Below, piece after piece: positions 12,470-26,011 of a stretch of 64,000 nucleotides of DNA. A model generated the notes under the pieces. The model saw nothing but the letters and a program-made list of their open reading frames with translations. It was not told the origin of the DNA and did no database searches. A program made the position numbers and the translations under genes. The number at the start of each line of letters is the position of its first letter. Position 1 is the stretch's first letter. The stretch lies in NCBI GenBank assembly GCA_017472305.1, contig JAFUQP010000002.1:2143-66142 (forward strand), read 5' to 3'. Source of the stretch: Clostridia bacterium (GTDB lineage Bacteria > Bacillota > Clostridia > Oscillospirales > CAG-272).

Positions 12470-13203
12470 TGGAAAATCAGCACGAAAGAACCGAGATGAT
12501 GCTCGGGCGCGAGGGTCTTTCAAGGCTGCGCGCCTCTCGGGTTGCGGTGTTCGGCATCGGAGGGGTCGGCGGGTATGCTGTAGAGGCTCTTTGCCGTGCG
12601 GGTGTCGGTAGGCTCGACCTTATCGACTCCGACAGGGTGTCACTCACAAACATCAACAGGCAGATAATCGCCACCCACAAAACCGTCGGTATGTATAAAA
12701 CCGATGCAATGAGGGATAGAATTGCCGAAATCAACCCCGAGGCGCAGGTTACAACCTATCCCGTATTCTACTCGAGAGAAAACCGCGGGGACTTCGACCT
12801 TACGGCATACGACTATATAATCGACGCTATCGACTCGGTTGACTCGAAGGTTGAGCTAATCGCCGAGGCAACGCGGCTCGGCGTGCCGATTATATCGGCA
12901 ATGGGCGCAGGCGGCAAGCTTGACCCGACGGCGTTCAGAGTAGCCGACATTTCCAAGACGGCAGTCTGTCCGCTTGCAAAGGCGGTAAGAGTGCGCCTGC
13001 GCAAAATGGGCATAAATCACCTTCGCGTGGTATACTCCGAGGAGCTTCCCTGCCCTCGCCCATCAGACGCCCCCGTCAGAGAGAGCATTGATGTGGAAAA
13101 CCCCGCGGAAAAGCGCAACCCACCGCCAAGCATATCCTTCGTCCCCTCGGTTATGGGGCTTATCCTCGCAGGCGAGGTTATTAAGGAGCTGGCAAAAAAT
13201 TAA
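12469..13203 (+). CDS. tcdA: tRNA threonylcarbamoyladenosine dehydratase (ThiF/E1-like)
   Basis: VAVFGIGGVGGYAVEALCRAGVGRLDLIDSDRVSLTNINRQ. The start overlaps the nagA stop (TAATG). Confidence 0.8.
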   Translation: MENQHERTEMMLGREGLSRLRASRVAVFGIGGVGGYAVEALCRAGVGRLDLIDSDRVSLTNINRQIIATHKTVGMYKTDAMRDRIAEINPEAQVTTYPVFYSRENRGDFDLTAYDYIIDAIDSVDSKVELIAEATRLGVPIISAMGAGGKLDPTAFRVADISKTAVCPLAKAVRVRLRKMGINHLRVVYSEELPCPRPSDAPVRESIDVENPAEKRNPPPSISFVPSVMGLILAGEVIKELAKN

Positions 13204-13219
13204 TAAACCCGAATGAAAA

Positions 13220-13264
13220 AGAGCGGAGATGATATCAAAATGGCATCTTCGCTCTGAATTTTTG
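13220..13264 (+). terminator. Intrinsic terminator after tcdA
   Basis: AGAGCGGAGATG...CATCTTCGCTCT followed by GAATTTTTG. Confidence 0.7.
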
Positions 13265-13331
13265 TGCGTTTAAGCGGGGAGAAAACAAGCAACACGCGTT
13301 TTAGTGCTGAAATTCCGCAACCTCTTCCCCT

Positions 13332-14132
13332 TTATCCTCTTTTTCTGTACTCGCTCGGACTGCAACCGACGCGGCGCTTGAAAAGCTTCGAAAAATAGCT
13401 GTAATTCTCCATTCCGACCGCAGAGGAAATCTCGGCAGCCGATTTCTCGGTTGTGGCAAGCAGCCGCTTTGCAAGGCTTATTCGCTTCGAGGTTACGTAT
13501 TCACCAACGGTGGTGGAAAAATAGCTGTGAAAGCCCTCGTAAAGTCGGTTCTTCGATACGAAAAGCGCAGCGGAAAGCCCCTCAACGGTCAGTCGCTCCG
13601 AAATATGAGCGTCGATATAGGCGACCGCCTTCTCAACGAACTCGCCGTAATCTATCTCAATAGCGTTCTCAAAGAGAAGGTGCGACAAAAGATTAATCAA
13701 GCTGCCGAGCTGCTTTTCGGATAAATACGAGAGCCTCGAGTAGCGCTCGCGCCAAAGCATTGGCGACTCAGAAAAGGGCGGCTTATCGACAGAAAGCTCG
13801 CAGTCGGGGCGCAGTCTGCCGATTATCACGTAGCCGACGGGACTGCCGTTTTTAAGTATCGGCACGACGGTGTCGCGCAGCCCCGCGTGGCAGATGTGCG
13901 TGTGCGGCTTGCCCGTGCTCTTACACTCGAGAAGCATCTTTTCGTCTGATGCGGCGCAGTTGAGGCGACACTCTCTGACACCCTGAAGGCAGTCGCAGAA
14001 ATCGTCGTCCGCGCGCCCTCTCATATATAAAAAGTTAAACTCCGAGTCGAGAATTGCGAGTGCCAGCCCCGTAACCTCACCAAGCTCGTCTATTATTTCC
14101 TTCAGCTTCTCTACGTTATATCTGATATTCAC
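13332..14132 (-). CDS. AraC-family regulator with an N-terminal PocR sensory domain
   Basis: A PocR-like FCDCLQGVRECRLNCAASD...ICHAGLRDTVVPI and a C-terminal AraC HTH (AAEISSAVGMENYSYFSKLFKRRVGCSPSEYR). It uses a GTG start. Confidence 0.8.
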   Translation of the reverse strand: MNIRYNVEKLKEIIDELGEVTGLALAILDSEFNFLYMRGRADDDFCDCLQGVRECRLNCAASDEKMLLECKSTGKPHTHICHAGLRDTVVPILKNGSPVGYVIIGRLRPDCELSVDKPPFSESPMLWRERYSRLSYLSEKQLGSLINLLSHLLFENAIEIDYGEFVEKAVAYIDAHISERLTVEGLSAALFVSKNRLYEGFHSYFSTTVGEYVTSKRISLAKRLLATTEKSAAEISSAVGMENYSYFSKLFKRRVGCSPSEYRKRG

Positions 14133-14263
14133 GGCATTACCTCGCCTCTGTTAGTTGCCCCGTATATAAAACATTCGCTTTACGGTCGGGGATTATTCCT
14201 TTGAATACATCTTACTACAAAGAGCGATTTTTGTCAATCGGTTTTGGGTTTTTTCCCATTTTG

Positions 14264-14293
14264 GGAAGATAAGACAACTTTAGAGGAAGATAA
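14264..14293 (+). promoter_or_regulatory. Direct repeat GGAAGATAA x2 with 21-bp spacing, abutting the -35; a candidate AraC-type activator site
   Basis: GGAAGATAA occurs at 14264-14272 and 14285-14293, which is two helical turns apart. Confidence 0.45.
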
Positions 14294-14298
14294 TTGTA

Positions 14299-14327
14299 TT
14301 GTCTTTTTACTTGCCGAGAGTTATAAT
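14299..14327 (+). promoter_or_regulatory. Promoter for the permease / 620-aa gene pair
   Basis: TTGTCT, 17 nt, TATAAT. Confidence 0.5.
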
Positions 14328-14405
14328 ATAACCGAAAAGGAGAAGCCGCAAAGCATAACTCGGCACTGACAGTGCTTTAATGGTATGCACCGCGGAGCTT
14401 GTGAT

Positions 14406-15266
14406 ATGGATTTACTTAGCTCACTGTTTATTGTAATTATAACCGTTGCAATGTCGGCGCAGAACGTAATCAAGAAGGGCTACAACAAAAGGAGCGAGGG
14501 CAAGGGCGTCTTTACCTTCAGCGGGGTAACCGTGCTGACAGCCTGCATCTTTTTCGTTGTGAAAAGCGGTTTTTACCTTCCCTTCGGCTTTGAGATGCTT
14601 CCGTTCGCTATAGGATTTGCGGTTTGCTATTTCTGCGCGTCGGTCTTTAACTTTCTGGCAATACAGGCAGGGCCGCTCTCGCTTACCTCGCTTGCAGTTT
14701 CCTACTCTCTGATTATTCCCACGCTTTACGGACTTATCTTTGACGGCGACGAGGCGGGAATATGGCTGTTTGTCGGACTTGGACTGCTCCTTGTAAGCCT
14801 CGTGCTTATAAACGCGAAGAAGGGCGACACGAAAATAACCCTCAAATGGGCGGTGTACGCGGTGCTGGCACTTGTCGGCAACGGCCTCTGCTCAACCCTT
14901 CAGCCGCTGCAATCGAGGATATTTGGTGGCGAGTACGACAGCACCTTTATGGTTGTCGCGTTGCTTTCGGTATTTCTTGGGCTAGCGGCATTCGCCTATT
15001 TCCACGAAAGAGAAGAAATTCTTCCCTCGCTTAAGTGCGGCGCACACCTTATGGTGCTGTGCGGTATAGCGAACGGACTTGTCAACCTTCTCGTTATGGT
15101 GGTATCAAAGACTGTCGATAACTCGGTTATGTTCCCAATAATCTCGGCAGGCGGAATTGTCGTCACCTGGATTGTATCGACCTTCTTCTATAAGGAAAAG
15201 CTCACCTTAAAGCAGAACGTCGGTATGGTTCTCGGAGTGCTTGCGATAGTATTTTTGAACATATAA
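14406..15266 (+). CDS. Polytopic membrane protein, probably a DMT-like permease
   Basis: About 10 hydrophobic segments. ATG 14406 follows GGAG. The family is not firmly recognised. Confidence 0.55.
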   Translation: MDLLSSLFIVIITVAMSAQNVIKKGYNKRSEGKGVFTFSGVTVLTACIFFVVKSGFYLPFGFEMLPFAIGFAVCYFCASVFNFLAIQAGPLSLTSLAVSYSLIIPTLYGLIFDGDEAGIWLFVGLGLLLVSLVLINAKKGDTKITLKWAVYAVLALVGNGLCSTLQPLQSRIFGGEYDSTFMVVALLSVFLGLAAFAYFHEREEILPSLKCGAHLMVLCGIANGLVNLLVMVVSKTVDNSVMFPIISAGGIVVTWIVSTFFYKEKLTLKQNVGMVLGVLAIVFLNI

Positions 15267-15312
15267 AGTAAACTTTTATTTACATATTTACAGAAAACAA
15301 AGGAGTCAACCT

Positions 15313-17175
15313 ATGAATTACGTGCATTGGCAAAGACCGAAAACAACGAGAAGATATATTCACCCACCGATGTCACAGCGTATGTATACTCTTTGGCGCG
15401 AGGGCAAATTCATATTTGGCGAGGCAGAAAAGGCGGTGCGTGACGAATACCTCGACCTTGTCAGCGCAGGGCTTACCTTCCTTCGGGGAGAGGCTTCTGA
15501 GCTCTTCGACTTCAAGTCGGCGAAGATTTTCCACCGCGAGGACGGTATTCCCGTTCACGGGCTCGGCTTCAAGCTCGGCGCGCTTGATTTTACAGTTGAG
15601 GCTTGCGCCCCCTTCGGGCTCACCCCCGCCTGCTTTATCAAGGCAACGCTCAAAAACAGTACCAAAGAAGAGGCAACCGAAGCTCTCGGATTTATGGTCA
15701 GAACAGGCCGCGAGTCGGCTCTCGTTATAGAGTCGCCCGACGTCTATGCAAGCTACGCGCCCGACCTCTCCGTATGGGAGCGTGTCAAGGCGACCTGGGC
15801 AGAAAAGGACGGAGTACTCACCGACGGCGAGAGATTTATAACCATCTCGGGTGACTTCGGCTTCGTGTTCGATAAGGAGCGCGGTATAGGCAAGTCAAGG
15901 GTGACACTCGCTGCGGGCGAGGAAAAGACCGTATATCTCGCCTTCGACTGCGGAAAACCCACCGCCCCCGACTACGAGGCGGCGCGCGCCGAGTGCATAA
16001 AGAGCTGGCAACGTGAGCTTCAGAGAATTAACAAGCTCCCCGAGGGACTTAAGGCGCAGCCAAGACACGAAACGACAGTAAGGCAGCTCACAGTTCAGCT
16101 GCTTCAGTGCTTCTGCCGTCCGAAGGGCTGCGACTTTGTGCTTGCAAGGCAGGGAGGACTCCAAAGGCAGGTATGGACCTATGAAACTATGCCCGTGCTC
16201 GAGGCGCTCTCCCGCATTGGCGATTTCGACGACTATATCGAGCCTATAATAGACGTATACTTCAACGAATTTGCAACCGAGTCGGGCGAGATTGTACCCC
16301 TCGCAATTCCGTGGGCAATGGCTACGGGCAACGTGCTCCAGAGCTTTGGCAGATACGCAGTACAGAGAGGCGACAAGGACTTCTTCAATAAGTACCGCGA
16401 CAAGGCGTATGCCGCCTTCAAGTGGATGAAGGAGCTTCGCGCCTCGGTTAAGGCAGAGGAAACCGTTGTACCCGGGCTCTTCCCGCCCCTTCGCAGCTGT
16501 GACGACGAGCTCGTATTCCAGGCTTGGTGCTCCACCGATACCTTCAATATCAAGGGTATCACCGCCTTTGCCGAGGCTTGCCACCACTTCGGTGACGAGG
16601 CTTACGGAGAGGTTTATGCCGAGTGCGAGGACTACAGAGCAACAATTCAGAGGCTCTGGGACAGCTTCAAGGCGGCACAAACCGAGGGCGACCTCAAAAT
16701 ACCCTTCTCCCCCGGTGTGCCCGACGAGGTAATAATGAAAACCTACCACTTCGCATATCCCGTCTCTTATTTCGTTGAGGGAATGGACCTTCCTATAGAC
16801 GAGGGCGAGAGAGTATTTGAAACCTACAAGAGGCTCGGTATGATACGCGGCGACGGAGTGCTCTGTGACAGAATGCCCGATAAGGCGTCGGATATAAAGG
16901 AAAGCGGCTCAACCCGCTTCAACCTTGACGAGAACGGCAGGTGCGTCGTGTGGTACGTCTGCTGCCACGAGTATTCGTGGTTCCAGTACTATATGCGCCA
17001 CGGCAGGCTCGATATGTGCGAAAGGCTTCTTCGCGGCGTATACGATTACTCAATGACCGACGAATACTATATGCTGGAGCGCTACAACGAGCGCGACCCC
17101 TATTTTGTCCCCTGGAGTCCCAACGCCTCTGCCAACGGCAGAACAATCTGTATGCTGCTTGATTTTTACAAATAA
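15313..17175 (+). CDS. Hypothetical cytoplasmic protein, 620 aa; function not recognised (possibly an alpha/alpha-barrel glycosidase-like fold)
   Basis: A long ORF with an AAAGGAG RBS and no signal peptide. I recognise no diagnostic motif. Confidence 0.7.
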   Translation: MNYVHWQRPKTTRRYIHPPMSQRMYTLWREGKFIFGEAEKAVRDEYLDLVSAGLTFLRGEASELFDFKSAKIFHREDGIPVHGLGFKLGALDFTVEACAPFGLTPACFIKATLKNSTKEEATEALGFMVRTGRESALVIESPDVYASYAPDLSVWERVKATWAEKDGVLTDGERFITISGDFGFVFDKERGIGKSRVTLAAGEEKTVYLAFDCGKPTAPDYEAARAECIKSWQRELQRINKLPEGLKAQPRHETTVRQLTVQLLQCFCRPKGCDFVLARQGGLQRQVWTYETMPVLEALSRIGDFDDYIEPIIDVYFNEFATESGEIVPLAIPWAMATGNVLQSFGRYAVQRGDKDFFNKYRDKAYAAFKWMKELRASVKAEETVVPGLFPPLRSCDDELVFQAWCSTDTFNIKGITAFAEACHHFGDEAYGEVYAECEDYRATIQRLWDSFKAAQTEGDLKIPFSPGVPDEVIMKTYHFAYPVSYFVEGMDLPIDEGERVFETYKRLGMIRGDGVLCDRMPDKASDIKESGSTRFNLDENGRCVVWYVCCHEYSWFQYYMRHGRLDMCERLLRGVYDYSMTDEYYMLERYNERDPYFVPWSPNASANGRTICMLLDFYK

Positions 17176-17213
17176 GGCGAAAAACGCAAAACCAAATAAA
17201 AATAGCCCTTTGG

Positions 17214-17247
17214 CAAAAAAGAGCCTCACATTCAAGTGAGGCTCTTT
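17214..17247. terminator. Bidirectional terminator between convergent genes
   Basis: AAAAAAA GAGCCTCAC attcaa GTGAGGCTC TTT. Confidence 0.8.
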
Positions 17248-17380
17248 GTATATTTGTTCAAAATTTTATGCCAAAAATCGACAGCCATTATTTGCGAGAG
17301 AAGATTTAGGACAGAACACGAGTTTACAGCCCGAAGGCGTACGAGTGTACGCCGAGCTTGGGTGGAAACGCGCGTTATGT

Positions 17381-18757
17381 TCAAATATTCTCCGCAAATT
17401 TGCGAACGGGCTTTCTGTTGTCCATAATCGCTTTAAATACCGCGCTCTCATACTCTCCAAAGAGCGGCACGCCGTCCTTCTCGGGAACACCGAGAACGTC
17501 GGAAATTACCCATACCATTGAGTTCGTGCCGAGAACACCTGCATCCATATCACCTTCAACCGTTCTTGGAATTGCACAGGGCGCACCCTGCATAGTCCAG
17601 GTCGAATATGCCTGAAGATAGGAGAACGAGCCGTCGGGCTTCTTGAATTTCAGAGTCTTGTCCCTCGTAATTCTTATAGCCTCGGGTGCGAGTCTGTAAA
17701 GCTCACAGCGCAGCTTCCTTGAAAGCTCGGGTGAGTAGTGCTCGTCAATGTTAAGCAGCAGCCTCTTGACAGAAACCCAGGGATTCCATACGGTGACTAT
17801 CGTGTCAGGCTCCTCGGGCGACATAATTGCCGCTATTGCCGCCTTCATAGCCTTCTCGGGGTTAGGAACGGGCTTGTGCATCTTGGTGTATGCACAGGCA
17901 ATCTTCATAAGTCCGTTAGAGCCGTAATAGTCGCACTTCTCGTGCCAGATGCCGTTGTCCTCACGCTGATGCGAGTCGAAGAATTCAGCAAGAGCCTCGA
18001 TATACTCGGGGCCGCGAGTCTTAAGCGTTGAAATCTGCTCTGAAAGAACAGAGCCAACGTTATAGCTTCTGTGGTCGAGGTCGAGAGTCGAGAGATACTC
18101 CTTGAAGGCTTCAAGAGTCTTCATATTGTCGGGAATAAGTATGTCGCCGCCCTCGCCGCCGTCGCTCATAGTCGGGTATTTCGGACGTCTGCCGTATCTC
18201 TTAAGAAGAATAAGCGCGCGGTCGTAGTCCCTGCAACGTCTGCCAATGCCGATATTCTTGCCCCATTGCGGATGGTAGAAGAAGCCGTCCTTGTCCTGAA
18301 GGTTCTCAACGAACGCCATCATTTTCTCGCTGTGCTCCTTGCCGAACCACTCGTTTACGTGCTCCTCGTCGGTAAGTCCACAGCTCTCGACGAAATCAAA
18401 AATCGAGTTCATAGCCTCGACAACGGGAAGAAATCCTACGTTATCTCTCGCCGAATGTGTATAGTGGAAGCCCGCCGTTCCGCAAAGCGGGTGATGCTCG
18501 CACTCGCTTTTGCCGTAAAGCTCGTTACAAACGCAAATATCGGGGTCGTAGAGGTTAGCCATCCACTTAATAAGCCCGACGTCATATATTGCGTGAAGCT
18601 CCTTGAACGCCTCGACTATCTCCTTTTTGTTCGGAGCGTCGAGCTTTTCCTCAAAGCGCGCCCACTGTCTTTTCTTTGTTTCAGCATCTCTCGCCTTGAG
18701 CTCGGCTACGAGCTCGGGAGAAAGTCCGTCATCAATACTGCCTATAAATTTTTCCAT
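17381..18757 (-). CDS. Cytoplasmic alpha/alpha-toroid (prenyltransferase/terpenoid-cyclase-like repeat) protein, 458 aa; a full-length paralog of an internal domain of the 1629-aa lipoprotein
   Basis: Q-x-x-(D/N)G-x-(F/W) repeats are present (LQDKDGFFYHPQW, HQREDNGIWHE). It is colinear with residues ~225-690 of ORF 20746..25668: LYDP...SARDN.GFLP, QD..G.FYHPQW, LAPEAI...FKK.DGS. Confidence 0.8.
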   Translation of the reverse strand: MEKFIGSIDDGLSPELVAELKARDAETKKRQWARFEEKLDAPNKKEIVEAFKELHAIYDVGLIKWMANLYDPDICVCNELYGKSECEHHPLCGTAGFHYTHSARDNVGFLPVVEAMNSIFDFVESCGLTDEEHVNEWFGKEHSEKMMAFVENLQDKDGFFYHPQWGKNIGIGRRCRDYDRALILLKRYGRRPKYPTMSDGGEGGDILIPDNMKTLEAFKEYLSTLDLDHRSYNVGSVLSEQISTLKTRGPEYIEALAEFFDSHQREDNGIWHEKCDYYGSNGLMKIACAYTKMHKPVPNPEKAMKAAIAAIMSPEEPDTIVTVWNPWVSVKRLLLNIDEHYSPELSRKLRCELYRLAPEAIRITRDKTLKFKKPDGSFSYLQAYSTWTMQGAPCAIPRTVEGDMDAGVLGTNSMVWVISDVLGVPEKDGVPLFGEYESAVFKAIMDNRKPVRKFAENI

Positions 18758-18768
18758 TTCTGTTCACC

Positions 18769-18815
18769 AAAAAATCATAGAAGCGGCAGCCGCACCTTCA
18801 GGAACGACTGCCGCT
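18769..18815 (-). terminator. Terminator after the 542-aa secreted-protein gene
   Basis: On the - strand: AGCGGCAGTCG...CGGCTGCCGCT, then TCTATGATTTTTT. Confidence 0.6.
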
Positions 18816-18875
18816 AAAGTTCACTTAACAGCCGCTGTATGTAAGCTTCTGTTTACTTTTCAATTACTGTGCCTA

Positions 18876-20504
18876 TTAGTTAGGAGCCTTGTATTCCTTA
18901 CAAATCTTTGCACCGCAAACGTTGTCGACATAGAATTCAACGTTTCTAAAGCGAGCATCGAACATAAGGCTTGCAGTATTATAATCCGCAACCGTCTTTC
19001 CGGTAGCAGTAGCGAATGAGCCTACACATACACCGTCAATATAAACAAGGCAGGTATTGGCATCGGTATAAACCTCGTATGTAATACGGTACCAAGTGTT
19101 AGCAAGAAGGTCATACTTGGAATCTGTCACGCCGGGAAGGCGAAGGGCGTTCTCTCCCTTTGCACTCTTGTACTTTGTGCTTGTTTCATCGTATGCCTTA
19201 ACACCGTCAAGATCAATTGTCTGTACACCCTTCTGAAGAGTCTTTGTAAGAGTGTTATATGACTTGCCGGAAGATGACGTTAGGTCGTCCGAATTCATAA
19301 GGAAGTAAACAGTTCCGGAATCGGTATCCGACTCATTGTTATAATAAACGTCAGCTCCATTGTAGTAGAAGTCATACTCAAATACTACGCAATTTGCACT
19401 TTCCGAGGTTGTCTTGTATATCGGGAAATGAAGCAAGGTTTGTGTACCCGTCTCACCTGACTCAACCGAAGGCTTGCTACCGCCGATTATCGCACCGTAC
19501 TTCTCAAATCCGGAGTCCTTAAGAAGATATGCGCAACTATTCTTTGAGAAGTTGGTATGAGCCACGTAGTTGTTACCACCGTTTCCAATGAAATCCTTCC
19601 ACGTCCAGCCGTCCATCGTGTAAGCAGAATCACCTATCTCGTCAAAGTACTTACCAGCAGTAACGCCTATCTCGTAAGGAATTACAACGGTATTGCCGGT
19701 TACGGTGATAGTGTCGCCGTCGTTTGCAACCTTGCGGTCAATCTCAACGCCGTTCTGACCGTAGGTGAAAATGCTCCAGCCCTTGATAGCCTCGGTGTCG
19801 TTTGCGTTAAGGGTGATAGAGGTATTAGCCTCAACGAAGCCGCGGTCTGCGGTAGCCTCACCTGCGGTGAAGGTGCCGTCAAGCACGGAAACGTAGGTAT
19901 ACTCCTTAACGAGTCTTTCTCTCTCTGCCTCTGCCTTACCATAGTTTACGTGAAGGTTCTGAGCCGCGGAGCCCATATCGAGCATACCAAAGTAGAACTC
20001 CTTCTGATAGTAGGAATAGAGGTCGGCGTCCTCCTCGGAAGCGAGAACTGCGCCATCTCTGTAAAGACGCTCAAACGCGTACTCCATTACGCTATAGGTG
20101 ATAACCTTCTTTGCTCCTGCCGACTCGGTTTCGATATACCAAACGTCAGCGAAGTCCTTTGCGGCAACGCCTGCGGTGGTGAATACGATTACCGCGGTTT
20201 CGGGAGTTCTGTCGCCGTCGAGGTCGATGTCCTCGGTAGCGGTTTTAGCCTTTGTTTCCTCAAAAGCGAGCTTTGCCTCTTGCTCAGAGGGGTCTCTGTC
20301 GTATACGCGGAGAGTTACGTCCTCGCCTGCGACGGTTGCGGGGTCAACTGCGAACATAAGGCAGAAATCGCCTGTGTCCATAACGTTCTTACTGATAATT
20401 TCGGGTGCTGCATTCTCGGCACTTACGGAAATTCCTACCGCACCGCCCACGAGAAGCGCGAGCGAAAGCACGAGAAGCAGGAGTTTTGTTACGCGATTTT
20501 TCAT
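18876..20504 (-). CDS. Secreted protein, 542 aa, with a C-terminal LamG/ConA-like module
   Basis: Signal peptide MKNRVTKLLLLVLSLALLVGGAVGISVSA. The C-terminal WYRITYEVYTDANTCLVYIDGVCVG...FYVDNV matches the LamG-type pattern. Confidence 0.8.
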   Translation of the reverse strand: MKNRVTKLLLLVLSLALLVGGAVGISVSAENAAPEIISKNVMDTGDFCLMFAVDPATVAGEDVTLRVYDRDPSEQEAKLAFEETKAKTATEDIDLDGDRTPETAVIVFTTAGVAAKDFADVWYIETESAGAKKVITYSVMEYAFERLYRDGAVLASEEDADLYSYYQKEFYFGMLDMGSAAQNLHVNYGKAEAERERLVKEYTYVSVLDGTFTAGEATADRGFVEANTSITLNANDTEAIKGWSIFTYGQNGVEIDRKVANDGDTITVTGNTVVIPYEIGVTAGKYFDEIGDSAYTMDGWTWKDFIGNGGNNYVAHTNFSKNSCAYLLKDSGFEKYGAIIGGSKPSVESGETGTQTLLHFPIYKTTSESANCVVFEYDFYYNGADVYYNNESDTDSGTVYFLMNSDDLTSSSGKSYNTLTKTLQKGVQTIDLDGVKAYDETSTKYKSAKGENALRLPGVTDSKYDLLANTWYRITYEVYTDANTCLVYIDGVCVGSFATATGKTVADYNTASLMFDARFRNVEFYVDNVCGAKICKEYKAPN

Positions 20505-20563
20505 TTTCTTTGTTCCTTTCGTTTAAGTTTAGTTTGTTTTTGTGTTTGTGGATAAATCTGCCG

Positions 20564-20701
20564 TCAGCTTCCTGTCCAACCGCCGCCGTTTTTATCCGGC
20601 TCTCCAAGCGTAGGAATTATCAGGCTTGTTGCTATCACGTCGCTGTCCTTAAAGCTCGTCACCGTAAGAATCGGCTCTGTGTAGCCTTTCTTTTCCTTCA
20701 T
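20564..20701 (-). CDS. Small ORF of 45 aa between the giant lipoprotein gene and the 542-aa gene
   Basis: My own translation gives MKEKKGYTEPILTVTSFKDSDVIATSLIIPTLGEPDKNGGGWTGS. AAAGGAG lies 8 nt upstream. An in-frame alternative ATG is at 20719. It is too short for the ORF track. Confidence 0.55.
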   Translation of the reverse strand: MKEKKGYTEPILTVTSFKDSDVIATSLIIPTLGEPDKNGGGWTGS

Positions 20702-20745
20702 AGTCGGCGCTCCTTTCATAGTTTTTTATTGTTTTGCGTTTGATT

Positions 20746-23700
20746 TTATTTAATCCATTCTTCAGGCGAGGGCGTATAGCTTCCCGTCCAGCCCGAGCCG
20801 TCAACGCTGTCGCTTTCGTCGGGGGTGGTGGGAATATTGCCTATATCGTCAAATCCAACGTCGGCGTCGGGGTTGCTCGGGCCCTGATAGGAGTAATCGG
20901 GCTTCTCGTCGGGGTCTACGCTGTCGCCGCCCGTGTTATCGCCGCCGGGATTATCGCCGCCGGGGTTGTCGCCGCCTGTACCGGGTGTGTCACCGCCCTC
21001 GTCGGGGTCGGGGTCGGGGGTATTGGTGTCAGAGAGCGCCGCCGCGTGATAGAGCTTCACGTCGTCAAAGAGGAGCATACCCTCTGCCGCCTGCGACGTA
21101 TAGAAGCGAATGCCGGTCACCTTGTCTGCGGTGATGGGTGTTTCGTAGAAGTAGCTTATCGTACTAGTTGAAACGTAGGAGTCGTTGACGAAGATATTGA
21201 CGTTCAGTATGCCGTCAACTACTGCGTACTCAAGGCGGAGCTTGAAGAGCTTTTCCTCGCTTCCTATAGTAGTCGTATCTATTGTACCTAACTTGCCTAT
21301 CGTATCGCCAACCGTCACGGCACCGCCGCCGCGCTTGAAGCCGAGGTTGCAGTACCATACCTTGTTGCCGTCGGAATTCAGAAGGTAGACCTCAACCGAG
21401 GAGGAAGCCTTCGAGTCGTAGCAGTCGAGGTAGAGATAGCTCTCGTAAACCGTCACAAGTGCAGACGAGCTCTTGTCGGCTGCCTTCATATAGAAGTTAA
21501 GGGTATCGTTGCCGCCCGTGGAGGTGCGAAGCGAGAGGAACTTCGAATATATCGGATTTCCGTCCCCGTCCTTGCCAACCTCAAGTCCCTTAACGCCGAG
21601 CTGCGCCTTTGCGGAGCGAGCTTCAAACTTCGTGTCGGGTATGGGATTATTCGGGTGCGCGTTCTCAAAGTCAAATCCGTTATCGGGAGTAAGCACGACG
21701 TTCGAGAAAGGATTTTCTACGTAGAAGGCTATAGTGTTCTCGCAGATTACGTCGTCAAGCGTTACACCGCCCGAGCCCGAAACGTTGGTTACCGTGAGAT
21801 ATGCGGGAGTAAGATTTTCACTTCCGTATATGTGTGTCAGAGTGTTTAGGGCAACGAGCTTTCTGCCAACGTAGGCAGTCATCATTCCCTCGTCAATCAT
21901 ATAGAGAAATTCAAGCTCAAAGCCGCTCGAGCCTACTGTGCTTCGCGAGAGAACAGCGCCATTACCGCCCGCGTAATACTCAGAGAGGGTTACGCTCCTG
22001 CCCTTAATCTCGACGTCGAGATTTATTATGGGGGTGCCGTCGTCACTGTGAAGAGTAAATCTGTAGGTTCCGCTTGCCGAGGAGGTTGCGCTGAGCGCTC
22101 CGACGAATCTTAAGGTGTTCTTAACGACGCTTCTGTCGGTCGGAAGGAGCTTCAAGGAAGCACCCGTAGAGCCAAGCTTCCCGCGCTCGCTCTGTATAGC
22201 CGCGCCGCCTGTGAGAGATACGAGGGAGTCCTCACCCTTGAAGGTGTGAACTATCGAGTCGTTTGTCGGGGAAACTCTGTCAAGGAAGTCAAGCTCGTCA
22301 CGCTCAAAGATAAGGTTGTCGAGCATAACAGTACCGACACCGCCCTTTACCGGGGTAATCTCAAGCAGCTCTGCTCTGTACTGCTGCGCACCTGCACAGA
22401 CCTGTGAGCTCATTCCAAGCAAAGTATCGTTTACATAAACGAGGATTGCAGGCTCTTCGGTGAAGTATTCAAGGCGAAGCTTGAAGCTCTCGCCCACGGG
22501 AACCTCAAAGCCCTTTACCGCGCCGCCCGCCGCTCCGTCGGGAGCCTCGACGAGCCTTACGACCTTGCCGCCGGACACGCTCGCTACCGCGAGGTCAAAG
22601 CAGGTTACGTCGTTGAGCCTCGAGTTGTTTTCACGCGTTGTGAGCCTTAGCACCGTGCCATTAGCATCTGCCGATACGGTAACGTCGCTCTCAAAGACCA
22701 TAGCGCGGGATTTGTTGCTTCTTACGTTAATAGGTAGGCTTACCTTGTACTCCGCACCCGCATTAATCGAGAGAGCGCGCGAGCCTGTCACGGAGTTTTC
22801 GGCAAGGGTCACCGCGTCCGCGTCGCCCTCGACGGTAAATACAGACGGAAGACCGTCGCCGTCAAATCTGTGCGTTTCCCTGCCCCTTGATGGTGCGTCG
22901 ATATTAATAGGCGCACTCTTCTCGACCTCATAGACCTGGCTTGTTCCGTAGCAGGCAACGTTATCCATCCAGAGCGTTGCCTCACAGCCCGTTACCGCAA
23001 TAATATTCGTGAAGGAGAAGGACTGCCTCGGCTCCGCCTCGCCCGAGAGCTTCGCTCCCGAGTCGTCGAAGAAGTTATCGGTTACCGCGATAAGCTCGCC
23101 GTTGAAGTAAAGCTTCGCTCTCACGGTTTCCTTGTCGCCCTTGAAGTAGACCATCTTGAAGTTGAACCACTCGCCAACCTTTGCTACGGCGTCAATCTCG
23201 GTTCGTACCTCAAATGAGGGCTTACGCGAGGAGCATTCCCACATTCTGACCTCGTCGCACGTGATGTTAAGCGTTACCATATAAACCGAGTCCTGCATAA
23301 GTATCTGGAACTCGGCGTCCCTCTTGCTCTTTTCGGGAACGCAGAAATCGGCTTCAAAGACGTAGCAGGTGGTATTCGGTGCAACGCCCGCCGCCTTAAT
23401 CTCGAGCGCTTCGTAGCAACCGAGCGCGGTGTCGAACTCCATAGCAAGGTTTGCGGGTTCGCCCTTTATGGGTGCGGCTACTACGCTGAGTGAGCCATCC
23501 GAAAGAGAGGTAGCGTTTACTCCGACAGGCTTTCCGCCGACGGTATCGTTATCAAAGTGAATGTAATCAACCTTAATCTCGCCCGAGTCCTTTACAATTT
23601 CGCCGAGTCCCTCGAGCCTCTTGACAAGCCTCATATAGTCGGCTCTCGTAAATATTCTCGGCATGATATCAATCGTGCCCGTGGTCTTGAAGAAGTCCTC

Positions 23701-25635
23701 AACAAGTCCGCCCATAGTGAGGGTGGTGGAGTTAATATCGCCCTCGTCAACGTTCGGAACGGCAACCTTCATACTCTGGCTCGTAGAGGTGTTCTGCCCA
23801 ATAAGATAGGTTATAGAGCCGTCGTTTTTCTTGAAAATAGCCTGCTTCTGGGTCGTTGCGTTGATTGCCTCGGGGGCAAGGGCAAGCATCTTGTCACGAA
23901 CCTCAGCGTACTGCGCCTTTTCCTCGGGGGTTTCGGAGTAGTCGCGAAGGTTAATCATAGTCTGGTTAAGCGAGCCCCACACGTTGTAGGTATAGAGAAC
24001 CGTTTCAACAGGCTGCTCCGAGGTCAGCATCGCTACTATAGACTCAATCGCAAGCGCCGCGCGCGGCACGGGAGCCTCGAGCTTGTTGTATACGTTTATC
24101 GCCTTGTAGTATGCGTTGGTGTTCGCGTAGGTGAGTCCCTCGTCCCAGAGTCCCGTTTCGGGGTTCTGATGCGCCGAGAGCCACTCTATCTCTATCTCTG
24201 CAAGAGAGTAACTCGCACCCTCTGCGCGAAGCTCCGCATCTCTTGCCAGCAGCTGCGTTGTGTTGGTGGTAAGCTCGTTTGCAATCTGATAGAAGGAGCG
24301 GTAGTTCGAGTGAGTTTTATCGAGCTTGTTCCTTGCCGAGAGGTCGTCAAGGTAGGCTCTGAATTTCGCCTCGCTGGTCAGCTGCTCAAATCCCGCGATA
24401 GTCGAGGTCGCGACAACGCGAGAGGCAAGAATTGCAGCATTTCTGCCCGAAAGCCTCGGAGAAAGGCGCGAATAGGTGGTCGGAGCAACGCCGCCAACGT
24501 AGCTGCCGTCGGCTAAAATGCCGTCACCCTTGACCCCCGTCGGTGTGTCGTAGGTGGGAAGCGCGTAAAAGCGTTCAAGCACCTGCACGGCGCTTCCTAC
24601 GTCACGGCCCATACGCTGAGTGTTTTTCTCAAGCTCCTCTCTGTCCCACTGCGGGTGATAGAAGTAACCGTTCGGGTCCTGGAGCCCCTTCGCAAACCTT
24701 ACAATCTGTTTACCGAACCAATCGGGGAAATCGTGACTGCCCGTCATACCGGAGCTGACGAAGAAGCCGAGAGCCTGCGCGGTTGACTCAATATCGGGAA
24801 GGAAGCCCTCGGTGTTTCTCGCCGAGTTCGAGAAGTAGAAGCCGCCGATGTACGGGTCGTAGAGGTCTGCAAACCAATCGACGACGTTGTCGGTGCATAT
24901 ATAATCGTAGTAAGAGCGTATCGCCGCTGCAAACTCCTCGTGGTTCGGGGTCCTCTTAGCAAGCTCCTCCTCGAAGGTCGCCCACTTTGCCGCCTGCGTT
25001 ACAGCGTCAAGCTCCTCCTGGTACTCTATTACGTCATAGGCAAGGTATCTTACTCTGCCCTCTTTCGGGGCAAGCACCTTACTGTCGCCTATTAGCTCGT
25101 CAATAAGACAGGAGAAGGCTCGAGTTTCGGCGGATTTTGATGTGTAGGTTTCACCGTCAAAGACAACTGCGAGCGACTCGCCGTCAGAGTAGATAACGTA
25201 ACCGACGTAGCCCTCGCGGTATTCCTTGATACGCTCGAGGTACCTGTATGCAAGCTTTGAAATCTCTCTTGAGGACTGACCGATTACAATCTCGTGAGCC
25301 TTAGCGCTTGACGTGTTATCGGCTACGGTAACCGCAACACCCGTTGCCGCCTCGATTTTCTCAATAAGCCTTTCTGTGTCGGCGTATTCGCCGTCGGTGA
25401 CAACCGTCACGGCAGTGCCCGGGGCAAATACGTATCTGTCGGGAATCACTCCGTCAGACGAGTCACCGGAGCCGGAATTATCGCCCGAGCCCGAGTCGCC
25501 CGAGCCGGAATTGCCCGAGCCGGAATTGCCGGAGCCCGAGTCACCCGAGCCTTCGTCACCGTCGCCGCCTATCTTGCACGCGTAAAGCGAGAAAACCAGC
25601 GAAAGCATCAAAAATATGTATAGTAGCTTTTTCAT
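20746..25635 (-). CDS. Giant surface lipoprotein, 1629 aa. Order of parts: lipobox, GS-rich linker, N-terminal domain, alpha/alpha-toroid domain, at least 4 LamG-like modules, GGDNP linker, C-terminal tail.
   Basis: MKKLLYIFLMLSLVFSLYAC lipobox; the start was moved to ATG 25635. Recurrent modules: FNFKMVYF..LYFNGELI..MDNV, FKLRLEYF..VYVNDTLL..LDNL, FELEFLYM..AYVGRKLV, FKLRLEYA..IFVNDSYV..FDDV. Confidence 0.85.
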   Translation of the reverse strand: MKKLLYIFLMLSLVFSLYACKIGGDGDEGSGDSGSGNSGSGNSGSGDSGSGDNSGSGDSSDGVIPDRYVFAPGTAVTVVTDGEYADTERLIEKIEAATGVAVTVADNTSSAKAHEIVIGQSSREISKLAYRYLERIKEYREGYVGYVIYSDGESLAVVFDGETYTSKSAETRAFSCLIDELIGDSKVLAPKEGRVRYLAYDVIEYQEELDAVTQAAKWATFEEELAKRTPNHEEFAAAIRSYYDYICTDNVVDWFADLYDPYIGGFYFSNSARNTEGFLPDIESTAQALGFFVSSGMTGSHDFPDWFGKQIVRFAKGLQDPNGYFYHPQWDREELEKNTQRMGRDVGSAVQVLERFYALPTYDTPTGVKGDGILADGSYVGGVAPTTYSRLSPRLSGRNAAILASRVVATSTIAGFEQLTSEAKFRAYLDDLSARNKLDKTHSNYRSFYQIANELTTNTTQLLARDAELRAEGASYSLAEIEIEWLSAHQNPETGLWDEGLTYANTNAYYKAINVYNKLEAPVPRAALAIESIVAMLTSEQPVETVLYTYNVWGSLNQTMINLRDYSETPEEKAQYAEVRDKMLALAPEAINATTQKQAIFKKNDGSITYLIGQNTSTSQSMKVAVPNVDEGDINSTTLTMGGLVEDFFKTTGTIDIMPRIFTRADYMRLVKRLEGLGEIVKDSGEIKVDYIHFDNDTVGGKPVGVNATSLSDGSLSVVAAPIKGEPANLAMEFDTALGCYEALEIKAAGVAPNTTCYVFEADFCVPEKSKRDAEFQILMQDSVYMVTLNITCDEVRMWECSSRKPSFEVRTEIDAVAKVGEWFNFKMVYFKGDKETVRAKLYFNGELIAVTDNFFDDSGAKLSGEAEPRQSFSFTNIIAVTGCEATLWMDNVACYGTSQVYEVEKSAPINIDAPSRGRETHRFDGDGLPSVFTVEGDADAVTLAENSVTGSRALSINAGAEYKVSLPINVRSNKSRAMVFESDVTVSADANGTVLRLTTRENNSRLNDVTCFDLAVASVSGGKVVRLVEAPDGAAGGAVKGFEVPVGESFKLRLEYFTEEPAILVYVNDTLLGMSSQVCAGAQQYRAELLEITPVKGGVGTVMLDNLIFERDELDFLDRVSPTNDSIVHTFKGEDSLVSLTGGAAIQSERGKLGSTGASLKLLPTDRSVVKNTLRFVGALSATSSASGTYRFTLHSDDGTPIINLDVEIKGRSVTLSEYYAGGNGAVLSRSTVGSSGFELEFLYMIDEGMMTAYVGRKLVALNTLTHIYGSENLTPAYLTVTNVSGSGGVTLDDVICENTIAFYVENPFSNVVLTPDNGFDFENAHPNNPIPDTKFEARSAKAQLGVKGLEVGKDGDGNPIYSKFLSLRTSTGGNDTLNFYMKAADKSSSALVTVYESYLYLDCYDSKASSSVEVYLLNSDGNKVWYCNLGFKRGGGAVTVGDTIGKLGTIDTTTIGSEEKLFKLRLEYAVVDGILNVNIFVNDSYVSTSTISYFYETPITADKVTGIRFYTSQAAEGMLLFDDVKLYHAAALSDTNTPDPDPDEGGDTPGTGGDNPGGDNPGGDNTGGDSVDPDEKPDYSYQGPSNPDADVGFDDIGNIPTTPDESDSVDGSGWTGSYTPSPEEWIK

Positions 25636-25685
25636 AGTTCTTCCTTTCTGCCGCGTATCTGAAGGCAAGCCGACGTTAATCCGTC

Positions 25686-25703
25686 AACTAACCGTTTAGT
25701 TAC
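25686..25703 (-). promoter_or_regulatory. Operator-like motif, copy 3, upstream of the giant lipoprotein gene
   Basis: The - strand reads GTAACTAAACGGTTAGTT, 51 nt upstream of ATG 25635. It matches copies at 30253 and 31097. Confidence 0.5.
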
Positions 25704-25881
25704 CTCGGCGGGAAAATCAAACGCAATTAGAGGAGTACGCCGCTTCTTTGGCTCGCGCCGACAAGATTTTCAAGTCATACTAATTGCGTTACTGTGGAAT
25801 AGATTGTTCTATTATTAATCAAAAGAGTTATATATCTATATATATTATAACACATTACTTCCTTATAAACAAGCCAAAAAT

Positions 25882-25911
25882 GTTCGTGATTTTCAATAAA
25901 AAATCACGAAC
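25882..25911. terminator. Hairpin terminator downstream of the catabolic operon
   Basis: GTTCGTGATTTT caataa AAAATCACGAAC, with an A-run before it and a T-rich tract after it. Confidence 0.65.
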
Positions 25912-26011
25912 ACTTTTGTTCAAACAGAATATCTGTGAGGAAATTTGTTTAGCTTTTGAGAAAGTCTTTGCCAAATAATTTGGTAGCAAAAACTCAAAAA
26001 AAATCAAGTTC

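Follow-up and report, generated by a model that had tools for sequence, protein, structure and literature searches.

A multi-copy cassette of gut Clostridia that encodes a giant ConA/LamG-type lipoprotein, a cytoplasmic paralog of its predicted alpha/alpha-toroid domain and a conserved 45-residue peptide

The (alpha/alpha)6 glycoside hydrolases (GHs), such as GH76, GH88/GH105, GH9 and GH15, and the lyases that combine a toroid with a beta-sandwich have conserved acidic, basic and aromatic residues at helix N-termini, together with beta-sandwich or jelly-roll modules. Gram-positive polysaccharide utilization loci (gpPULs) are defined by the joint presence of an enzyme, a transporter and a regulator (Sheridan et al. 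2016, PMC5320581). The locus described here is found in a 64,000-nucleotide stretch of DNA from an uncultured Clostridia bacterium (contig JAFUQP010000002.1; the whole stretch is called the window, and all coordinates refer to it unless another locus is named), and consists of four minus-strand genes at 17381-25635 that encode a giant lipoprotein of 1629 aa, a 45-aa peptide, a secreted protein of 542 aa, and a 458-aa cytoplasmic protein that is a paralog of one domain of the giant protein. We conclude that this core is a real, conserved and unannotated system with an added, unexplained component, for which catalysis, a carbohydrate substrate and a role of the peptide are things that we infer. 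The reading that we favor, at a little short of an even chance, is that the cassette is a multi-copy, individually regulated surface unit for the capture and processing of complex carbohydrates.

The 458-aa protein (17381-18757, minus strand; translation and AlphaFold2 model) was compared with the giant lipoprotein using BLASTP, and a single colinear alignment was obtained (query residues 24-415, subject residues 210-645, 28% identity, E=5e-51). A preliminary description of this DNA had proposed the paralogy of the two proteins, and every block that it quoted is contained in the alignment: WMANLYDP/WFADLYDP, SARDNVGFLP/SARNTEGFLP, LQDKDGFFYHPQW/LQDPNGYFYHPQW, HQREDNGIWHE/HQNPETGLWDE, LAPEAI, and FKKPDGSFSY/FKKNDGSITY. 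Because this colinear alignment is far above chance, the paralogy is real. The corresponding domain of the giant protein, as delimited by BLASTP and by the profile of the toroid alignment (A1), extends over about residues 210-679 (23599-25008, minus strand), and the A1 profile matches the toroid position in hundreds of giants with E values of ~1e-125 to 1e-149. A Cys/His-rich insertion, CVCNELYGKSECEHHPLC, is present at residues 72-92 of the 458-aa protein and in close relatives and is missing from the copy in the giant; it may form a small loop that binds metal.

The AlphaFold2 model of the 458-aa protein, made with the family alignment, is all-helical with a few hairpins (predicted local distance difference test [pLDDT] score 94.8, predicted template modeling [TM] score 0.92). 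A Foldseek search of the PDB with this model retrieved alpha/alpha toroids only, in agreement with the fold that had been proposed for the shared domain. The best match was squalene-hopene cyclase (E=3e-4, prob 0.99), and the others were GH76, the thioester domains (TEDs) of alpha2-macroglobulin and C3, drimenyl-diphosphate synthase, GH105, GH9, glucoamylase (GH15), transcobalamin and intrinsic factor. These matches are weak and hold at the level of fold class only (E>=3e-4, TM score 0.25-0.35, ~10% identity), and judging from the model the toroid has no close solved relative; no significant match in sequence or structure to one classified (alpha/alpha)6 GH or polysaccharide lyase family was found. 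The Q-x-x-(D/N)-G-x-(F/W) repeats had been taken as the signature of alpha/alpha toroids of the prenyltransferase and terpenoid cyclase type, and both the repeats and the top Foldseek matches, squalene-hopene cyclase and drimenyl-diphosphate synthase, would suit a toroid that works on terpenoids or prenyl groups, whether as a class II cyclase, a protein prenyltransferase or a LanC-type cyclase. However, such a chemistry was not supported when 64 toroid members were searched for the associated motifs: DxDD is present in 3 of them, at non-conserved positions, and is absent from the giant, DDxxD is present in 2, the alignment has no conserved Cys column and neither Cys nor His among its 16 invariant residues, and the conserved Zn ligands (Cys, His) of the prenyltransferase or LanC type were not found in it. 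Moreover, the Pfam models Prenyltrans and SQHop_cyclase did not match the core proteins at E<=0.1, the neighborhood contains no isoprenoid genes, and an extracellular copy of such an enzyme would be without prenyl diphosphate donors. The terpene cyclase, prenyltransferase and LanC readings were therefore rejected, as was a TED reading in view of the absence of the CGEQ thioester motif from all 64 members and from the giant, and chemistry of the terpenoid or prenyl kind is barely credible for this domain.

In addition to the 16 invariant positions, the toroid alignment contains about 40 near-invariant ones, and the conserved set is rich in R, D, E, K, N, Y, W and H (it includes W65, Y161, H162, W165, R173, R176, D177, Y232, K285, N325, Y380, Q390 and E401). 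Almost all of these residues are retained in the giant's copy, as seen in the BLASTP alignment, and several of them are located where successive helices begin in the AlphaFold2 model. The conserved polar and aromatic residues may therefore be pictured as a pocket at the helix N-termini and long loops, and the conserved E114, D177 and E401 are candidates for catalytic residues. It is also conceivable that the toroid binds and does not catalyze, as a ligand-binding module resembling a TED or transcobalamin, such that the giants would serve as variable adhesins or as receptors that capture nutrients, and the same ligand, once imported, would be bound by the cytoplasmic paralog. This alternative draws on the non-enzymatic toroids among the Foldseek matches (bacterial alpha2-macroglobulin TED, C3, transcobalamin and intrinsic factor), on the TED of complement C4, which was the sole hint in profile-to-PDB sequence comparisons (E=1.5), on the lack of a recognized catalytic signature in the toroid, and on the variability and copy number of the surface family, a pattern typical for receptors and adhesins. 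What makes us regard it as somewhat unlikely is that CGEQ is missing, that charged or polar residues (R, D, K, N, Q) are numerous among the invariant positions, next to aromatics, a composition seen more often in enzymes, and that sequential processing accounts better than adhesion for the cytoplasmic paralog that nearly every locus has.

Searches of Pfam, NCBIfam, PDB sequences and PADLOC gave no match for the 458-aa, 542-aa or 1629-aa proteins, and the earlier statement that these proteins were not recognized as a named enzyme family is upheld, as none of the four core proteins matches a named family. The 272 word-indexed homologs of the 458-aa protein are unnamed, have no Pfam domains and come from metagenome-assembled genomes (MAGs) of Clostridia, the precomputed Pfam field being empty for all 120 homologs listed. 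Among 1.84 billion representatives, a profile of 64 toroid sequences retrieved 1401 clusters (50% identity), in which the domain is either free, as a protein of ~400-480 aa, or embedded in proteins of 800-2700 aa, where it takes up about residues 170-650. A full-text literature search with FYHPQW and similar motifs found no paper, and a Foldseek search of viral structures gave no match. A defense-system reading was rejected because the PADLOC models of anti-phage defense matched none of five proteins.

The gene of the giant lipoprotein (20746-25635, minus strand) encodes 1629 aa when translated from the ATG at 25635, and its open reading frame (ORF) reaches a TTG at 25668. The 339 homologs of 1100-2700 aa are all unnamed. 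The sequence begins with a signal peptide that has a lipobox-like LYAC with Cys20 (MKKLLYIFLMLSLVFSLYAC; 25576-25635, minus strand), and this is followed by an N-terminal domain at about residues 66-205 (25021-25440, minus strand), for which a single marginal PDB-sequence match (E=0.11) was obtained and which precedes the toroid, the latter starting at about residue 165-200 in most giants. Behind the toroid, four repeated modules were found by module profile (E values of 1e-17 to 1e-55), which bears out the claim of at least four LamG/ConA-like modules: module 1 at 22831-23598, module 2 at 22177-22830 (E=1.6e-36), module 3 at 21706-22176 (E=2.4e-17) and module 4 at 21049-21705 (E=1.3e-27), all on the minus strand. 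The window giant itself has no Pfam match, and the modules belong to the ConA-like clan by way of homologous modules in the relatives P0268, P0270 and P0322 that reach Pfam Laminin_G_3 or 3keto-disac_hyd (the P0268 homolog of module 1 is 3keto-disac_hyd, and the P0268 and P0270 homologs of module 2 are Laminin_G_3). A sub-threshold Alginate_lyase2 match was seen among the modules of relatives, some of which have DUF1080 or PL7-like matches, and three relatives of ~2500 aa (P0273, P0283 and P0285) carry an insertion of a CE4 polysaccharide deacetylase, located at residues 1579-1748 of P0273. The last 100 aa of the window giant (20749-21048, minus strand) form an acidic, Gly/Pro/Asp-rich tail with the motif D-G-S-G-W-T-G-S at 20779-20802.

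The 542-aa protein (18876-20504, minus strand; from translation), which represents the family that we call S542 or the 542 family, has a Sec signal at residues 1-29 and a C-terminal ConA-like module at about 18879-19637. The module type that ends this protein had been said to be the same as that of the giant; BLASTP gave no match between the two proteins, and the claim stands at the profile level, where the last 250 residues of the 542 family gave an i-E of 5.8e-6 on module 1 of the window giant and of 5e-16 on relatives, with an hhalign probability of 97.5%. The first-iteration profile and hhalign were used for this link, as the iterated module profile drifted from the 542 family. Pfam matches of the 542 family were sub-threshold and ConA-like only (weak Laminin_G_3, DUF1080 and Polysacc_lyase matches in a few members).

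The localization of the proteins was called with a simple hydrophobicity and lipobox heuristic. On this basis, the N-terminus is hydrophobic in 78 of 79 giants and a lipobox-like Cys is present in 73 of 79, a hydrophobic N-terminal signal is seen throughout the 542 family (48 of 48), and 98 of 103 free toroids have neither a signal peptide nor a lipobox. The 458-aa ORF allows no upstream extension, and its N-terminus is without a hydrophobic stretch. The presence of one extracellular and one intracellular copy of the toroid had been proposed for the window, and this outside/inside split is a property of the family.

The region as a whole contains six long genes and one short one, the 45-aa ORF, and the genes listed in the preliminary description were all found where it had placed them. 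The four minus-strand genes are tightly packed, with a Shine-Dalgarno-like site before each. A long hairpin with a 20-bp stem (25875-25918, minus strand), detected in a scan for terminator-like structures, divides the giant gene from the operon upstream of it, and a bidirectional terminator-like hairpin (17204-17247; a 12-bp stem on the plus strand and an 8-bp stem on the minus strand, with a T run after each) is located between the convergent genes of the 458-aa toroid and a 620-aa protein. Because of the close spacing of the genes and their bracketing by these two elements, the stretch at 17381-25635 reads as one operon in the order giant, peptide, 542-aa protein and free toroid. A promoter-like site 5′ of the giant gene (25811-25838, minus strand; TAGATA-16-AATAAT, 9 of 12 matches) is a match to the consensus only, and Rfam gave no RNA family within 13000-26500 at E<=0.1.

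The toroid profile was run on the contigs of one genome per species of GTDB, which gave 253 matches, and 74 loci were kept from about 20 MAGs that come from the guts of deer, goat and other animals; further loci were added by way of individual proteins, and ORFs were called and classified with our own profiles. In the resulting 77 non-redundant loci, giant, free toroid and 542-family genes are found together in 37, and in 36 of these they are contiguous on one strand. This rules against chance adjacency, which was rejected, and confirms the co-occurrence that had been expected of the three genes. The gene order is permuted among loci and the gene set is constant. Taken together, no characterized family was hit, the toroid model stands and the genes co-occur, so that none of the outcomes named beforehand as refuting the proposal was obtained.

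The massive multi-copy nature of the cassette had gone unmentioned in the preliminary description. Within the retrieved loci, the counts in single MAGs come to at least 11-12 for giants and at least 14 for free toroids, and the cassette is lineage-restricted and highly multiplied in uncultured herbivore-gut Clostridia. Giant and toroid genes alone are present in 14 of the 77 loci, some of them as arrays; in L028, L018, L020, L082 and L005, up to three giants are followed by four to six free toroids (three and six, respectively, in L028), without a 542-family gene or peptide. Such arrays show giant plus toroid to be the minimal unit. A phage-type integrase gene lies immediately 5′ of the orthologous cassette in another MAG (L001, 1348-2628), a hint of possible cassette mobility.

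Free and embedded toroid domains fall mostly into separate similarity classes. Nevertheless, they are related locus by locus: the closest giant domain of a free toroid within its MAG was that of the giant in its own locus in 31 of 58 cases, and the mean identity of free toroids to the own-locus giant was 40.8%, as compared to 35.1% for the other giants of the MAG (Wilcoxon p=3e-8). This own-locus similarity suggests either a matched specificity of the two copies or recurrent local duplication.

Between the giant gene and the 542-aa gene is the 45-aa ORF 'pep' (MKEKKGYTEPILTVTSFKDSDVIATSLIIPTLGEPDKNGGGWTGS; 20564-20701, minus strand, with an alternative ATG at 20719), which had been missed in the preliminary description. 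The sequence AAAGGAG is found 8 nt 5′ of its ATG at 20701. A profile made from 29 homologs detected 42 ORFs, essentially all of them directly upstream of a 542-family gene at a median gap of 37 nt, and in L027 (6908-7605) two tandem ORFs of the peptide family lie upstream of one 542-family gene. The profile matched small ORFs only and nothing inside large proteins, on account of which a derivation of the peptide from the C-terminal module of the giants was rejected. The peptide has a basic N-terminus, a motif block (Y-x-x-A/P-x-L-x-V-V-x-F-x-x-x-D-I/V-I/V-T/A-T/A-S, with invariant Y, D and S), a Gly-rich stretch of acidic character and a C-terminal h-D-x-x-G-W-T/V, in which W is nearly invariant. 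It has no signal peptide, and neither Pfam and NCBIfam searches with four homologs nor PADLOC gave a match. No known utilization-locus logic explains this peptide.

About a quarter of the giants (some 14-17 family giants other than that of the window) have an acidic low-complexity end that contains the C-terminal motif of the peptide, and the two versions resemble each other within a locus: GGGWTGS in the peptide and GSGWTGS in the giant of the window, GGWTER and YGWTERN in L001, and GDWTPERN and GGWTPERP in L041. On average, 4.3 of 11 positions are identical between peptide and giant tail of the same locus versus 2.7 across loci (permutation p=2.5e-4). Tailed giants are found in 14 of 41 cases in loci with a 542-family gene and in 3 of 34 without one (p=0.012), and they are nearly absent, with the exception of one borderline regex match in L078, from the three MAG lineages in which both the peptide and the 542 family are missing. 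These observations, and the constant position of the conserved peptide just upstream of the 542-family gene, allow a different interpretation, in which the h-D-x-x-G-W of the peptide and of the tailed giants would be a ligand or substrate of the 542-aa protein or the toroid, for docking, assembly or modification in a dockerin-like or RiPP-like manner (RiPP, a peptide synthesized by ribosomes and modified after translation), and the free peptide would be a regulator, a competitor or a product. It would agree with this that in protein prenyltransferase beta subunits an alpha/alpha barrel binds C-terminal tails. The N-terminal motif of the peptide (Y-x-x-A/P-x-L, then F-x-x-x-D-I-V-T-A-S) also resembles leader motifs of lasso peptides and class I lanthipeptides, examples of which are found in PMC7829367, and a literature search for DVITTS and similar motifs returned just an incidental lanthipeptide leader.

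If so, the cassette would be a previously undescribed surface-assembly or peptide-signalling system and not a glycan-degrading one, with locus-specific tail/receptor pairs that diversify across a dozen or more cassettes per genome, which we consider unlikely. It is difficult to reconcile with a peptide that lacks a signal peptide in a system whose giants and 542-aa protein are outside the cell, with neighbors that include no conserved RiPP recognition element (RRE), protease, exporter, radical-SAM enzyme or other known maturase, and with the giant and toroid pairs that occur in many loci and whole lineages without peptide or tails. The tail itself is present in just about a quarter of the giants, and local gene conversion could produce the similarity within loci. 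The cassette would be categorically new under the peptide-tail interpretation, an outcome that is equally unlikely.

In the favored interpretation, that of a capture-and-process unit for carbohydrates, the giant would be lipid-anchored outside the membrane and would present an enzyme-like alpha/alpha-toroid pocket, while the four ConA/LamG-like modules behind it would hold the polymer and the secreted 542-aa protein would supply a fifth such module. The cytoplasmic paralog, sequence-matched to its own giant, would then act on an imported fragment of the same substrate, and the copies of the cassette would differ in specificity, each usually under an AraC-type regulator of its own. Glycan acquisition is favored because of the company that the cassettes keep, namely AraC regulators, GH20, GH2, GH88 and GH78, and because of the CE4 insertions in giants. 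AraC-family regulators are beside the cassette as the cupin type in 22 loci, as the PocR type in 5 and as other types in 4; GH20 with a GH20C C-terminal domain is beside it in 10 loci, GH2 in 3, DUF4838 in 3, and a xylose-isomerase-like TIM barrel in 4, the last being of the same Pfam family as a gene just upstream of the giant in the window. GH2-like and CE4-like genes adjoin orphan toroids. In L002 (7471-13465), a GH88 gene is followed by two tandem free toroids and then, on the opposite strand, by a GH78-type rhamnosidase gene, which is the most explicit carbohydrate context that was found for the toroid family. The GH76, GH105, GH9 and GH15 enzymes among the Foldseek matches count for this interpretation as well, as do the paralogy and the conserved positions of the toroid, the ConA/LamG modules, the compartment split, the contiguity of the giant, toroid and 542-family genes, the copy number in single MAGs, the matched toroid pairs and the terminators that bracket the operon.

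Several findings weigh on the other side. The core proteins match no carbohydrate-active enzyme (CAZyme), Pfam or NCBIfam model, and the best structural match of the toroid is squalene-hopene cyclase, all of its matches being weak and none indicating a hydrolase or lyase family. No carbohydrate transporter family recurs beside the cassette among the neighbors examined, the glycosidase neighbors are found in a minority of loci, and many neighbors are housekeeping genes. A plain model of glycan degradation has no room for the conserved peptide or for the shared D-x-x-G-W tails. Finally, the carriers are all uncultured MAGs, and the cassette is known from sequence alone.

On the other side of the bidirectional hairpin are the genes of the 620-aa cytoplasmic protein (15313-17175, plus strand), of an EamA/DMT-type permease (14385-15266, plus strand; Pfam EamA, E=4e-9) and of a PocR-sensor AraC-family regulator (13332-14132, minus strand; Pfam PocR, HTH_18 and HTH_AraC). 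The regulator and the permease had been named as neighbors, and Pfam supports both assignments. Their inclusion in one system with the cassette, along with the 620-aa gene, is not borne out, as each set recurs without the other. In L008 and L084, the divergent PocR/AraC gene, EamA and one or two 620-family genes are present without the cassette, as are PocR/AraC and the 620 family without EamA in L085, and EamA with two 620-family copies in L009. EamA is directly 5′ of 620-family genes in L007, L008, L009 and L084, and the 620-family copies are in tandem after it in L008 (8055-11857; 639 and 618 aa) and L009 (10001-13701; 613 and 614 aa). Conversely, the cassette is found without PocR, EamA and the 620-aa gene in L001 and in all genome-scan loci, and of the only 6 ORFs of the 620 family none is in the genome-scan loci L010-L083. 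A single six-gene locus of regulator, permease, 620-aa protein, toroid, 542-aa protein and giant is very doubtful on these grounds, and also because its halves are convergently transcribed with a terminator between them; it would rely on the adjacency of the genes in the window and in a near-identical relative (L007), on the carbohydrate-related appearance of both halves, and on the PocR/AraC regulators that adjoin the cassette in 5 other loci. A 672-aa protein beside the cassette of L003 was considered and is not a homolog of the 620 family, and a 458-aa protein that follows the 620-family pair of L009 is not a toroid homolog.

The 620-aa protein had been listed as an unknown cytoplasmic protein, and it has no Pfam or NCBIfam match, its 261 homologs being all unnamed. 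Its AlphaFold2 model (pLDDT 94.5) has the fold of glycosidases and phosphorylases, an N-terminal beta-sandwich followed by an (alpha/alpha)6 barrel, and Foldseek matched it to GH116, GH52, GH63, GH15 and GH94 enzymes (prob 1.0, E values of 4e-14 to 1e-10, TM score 0.5-0.64), which it resembles in this two-domain architecture and from which it differs in sequence, at 9-13% identity. The model indicates that the protein is a glycosidase- or phosphorylase-like enzyme of an unclassified family. Together with the permease and the regulator, its gene looks like a small sugar-utilization unit of its own.

Just 5′ of the giant gene, at 26012-30235 on the minus strand, are four co-directional genes for an M20 peptidase/deacylase, an NAD-dependent epimerase/dehydratase, a DHDPS-family aldolase and the xylose-isomerase-like TIM barrel, a set that looks like an operon for sugar-acid or amino-sugar catabolism. 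Farther upstream, a TetR-family regulator gene (30297-30920, minus strand) is divergent from a GFO/IDH/MocA oxidoreductase gene (31146-32210, plus strand), and genes of the GFO/IDH/MocA type are recurrent near cassettes and 620-family genes in other loci. The window also contains a serpin gene (34046-35362, minus strand; Pfam Serpin, E=2.9e-85), a kind of gene not often seen in bacteria.

If the carbohydrate interpretation is true, the toroids are an enzyme-like family of at least 1400 clusters (50% identity) without a database model, and the cassette is a new type of Gram-positive glycan-acquisition cassette. With at least 25 toroid-domain genes in single genomes of uncultured herbivore-gut Clostridia, substrates and enzymology would be involved that currently go unseen when metagenomes from rumen and hindgut are annotated for CAZymes. 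The matched pairs of outside and inside paralogs provide a built-in handle for the assignment of specificity, and a micro-peptide with a tail that covaries with that of the giant could reveal a new mechanism of docking, regulation or peptide modification. One small soluble protein (458 aa) and the synthetic peptide EPDKNGGGWTGS are enough for a direct test of these hypotheses.

When the parts of the cassette are set against known systems, the toroid shares its fold class, the Q-x-x-D-G-x-aromatic repeats between helices and its best Foldseek matches with squalene-hopene cyclase, drimenyl-diphosphate synthase and the beta subunit of protein farnesyltransferase, and differs from them in lacking DxDD, DDxxD, the Zn-ligand Cys and the Pfam repeats and in having one copy that is extracellular. 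Like the alpha2-macroglobulin and complement TEDs, to which it has weak Foldseek and profile matches, it is part of a giant multi-domain bacterial lipoprotein, but CGEQ is absent and the giant has ConA-like modules in place of macroglobulin domains, of which none were detected. Its resemblance to the (alpha/alpha)6 GHs and lyases is in the conserved acidic, basic and aromatic residues at helix N-termini, in the joining of a toroid to beta-sandwich or jelly-roll modules, and in the one locus in which GH88 and GH78 genes stand beside two free toroids, whereas the structural similarity is weak (E ~1e-2), there is no sequence similarity, and the catalytic residues are candidates only. The 45-aa peptide is similar to RiPP leaders in its Y-x-x-A/P-x-L (lasso YxxPxL) and F-x-x-x-D-I-V-T-A-S (class I lanthipeptide FNLD box) motifs, but its core is without Cys, the cassette has no RRE, LanB/LanC, lasso cyclase, protease or exporter, and no known RiPP enzyme family was found in the cassette or among its recurrent neighbors. 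As in cohesin-dockerin docking, a short C-terminal motif is common to the peptide and a large surface protein of the same locus; unlike a folded dockerin, the tail motif is 8-10 residues long.

The closest overall comparison is to the gpPULs (PMC5320581). These also occur as many substrate-specific copies per gut Firmicutes genome with AraC-type regulators by most copies, use surface multi-module proteins with carbohydrate-binding-type modules and have intracellular enzymes that finish the degradation, and GH20, GH2, GH88 and GH78 genes are near some cassette loci. With respect to the regulator, AraC-type genes flank the cassette in at least 30 loci, and the PocR/AraC gene of the window belongs to the other module. 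As to the transporter, no family recurs by the cassette, and the EamA gene of the window travels with the 620-aa gene. For the enzyme, there is no recognized core CAZyme or polysaccharide-degrading enzyme, and what is found is GH20 in 10 loci, GH2 in 3, and the CE4 insertion in 3 giants. We have therefore filed the cassette as one that works like a gpPUL and is not a member of that class, its core being made up instead of unannotated families and a conserved 45-aa peptide gene.

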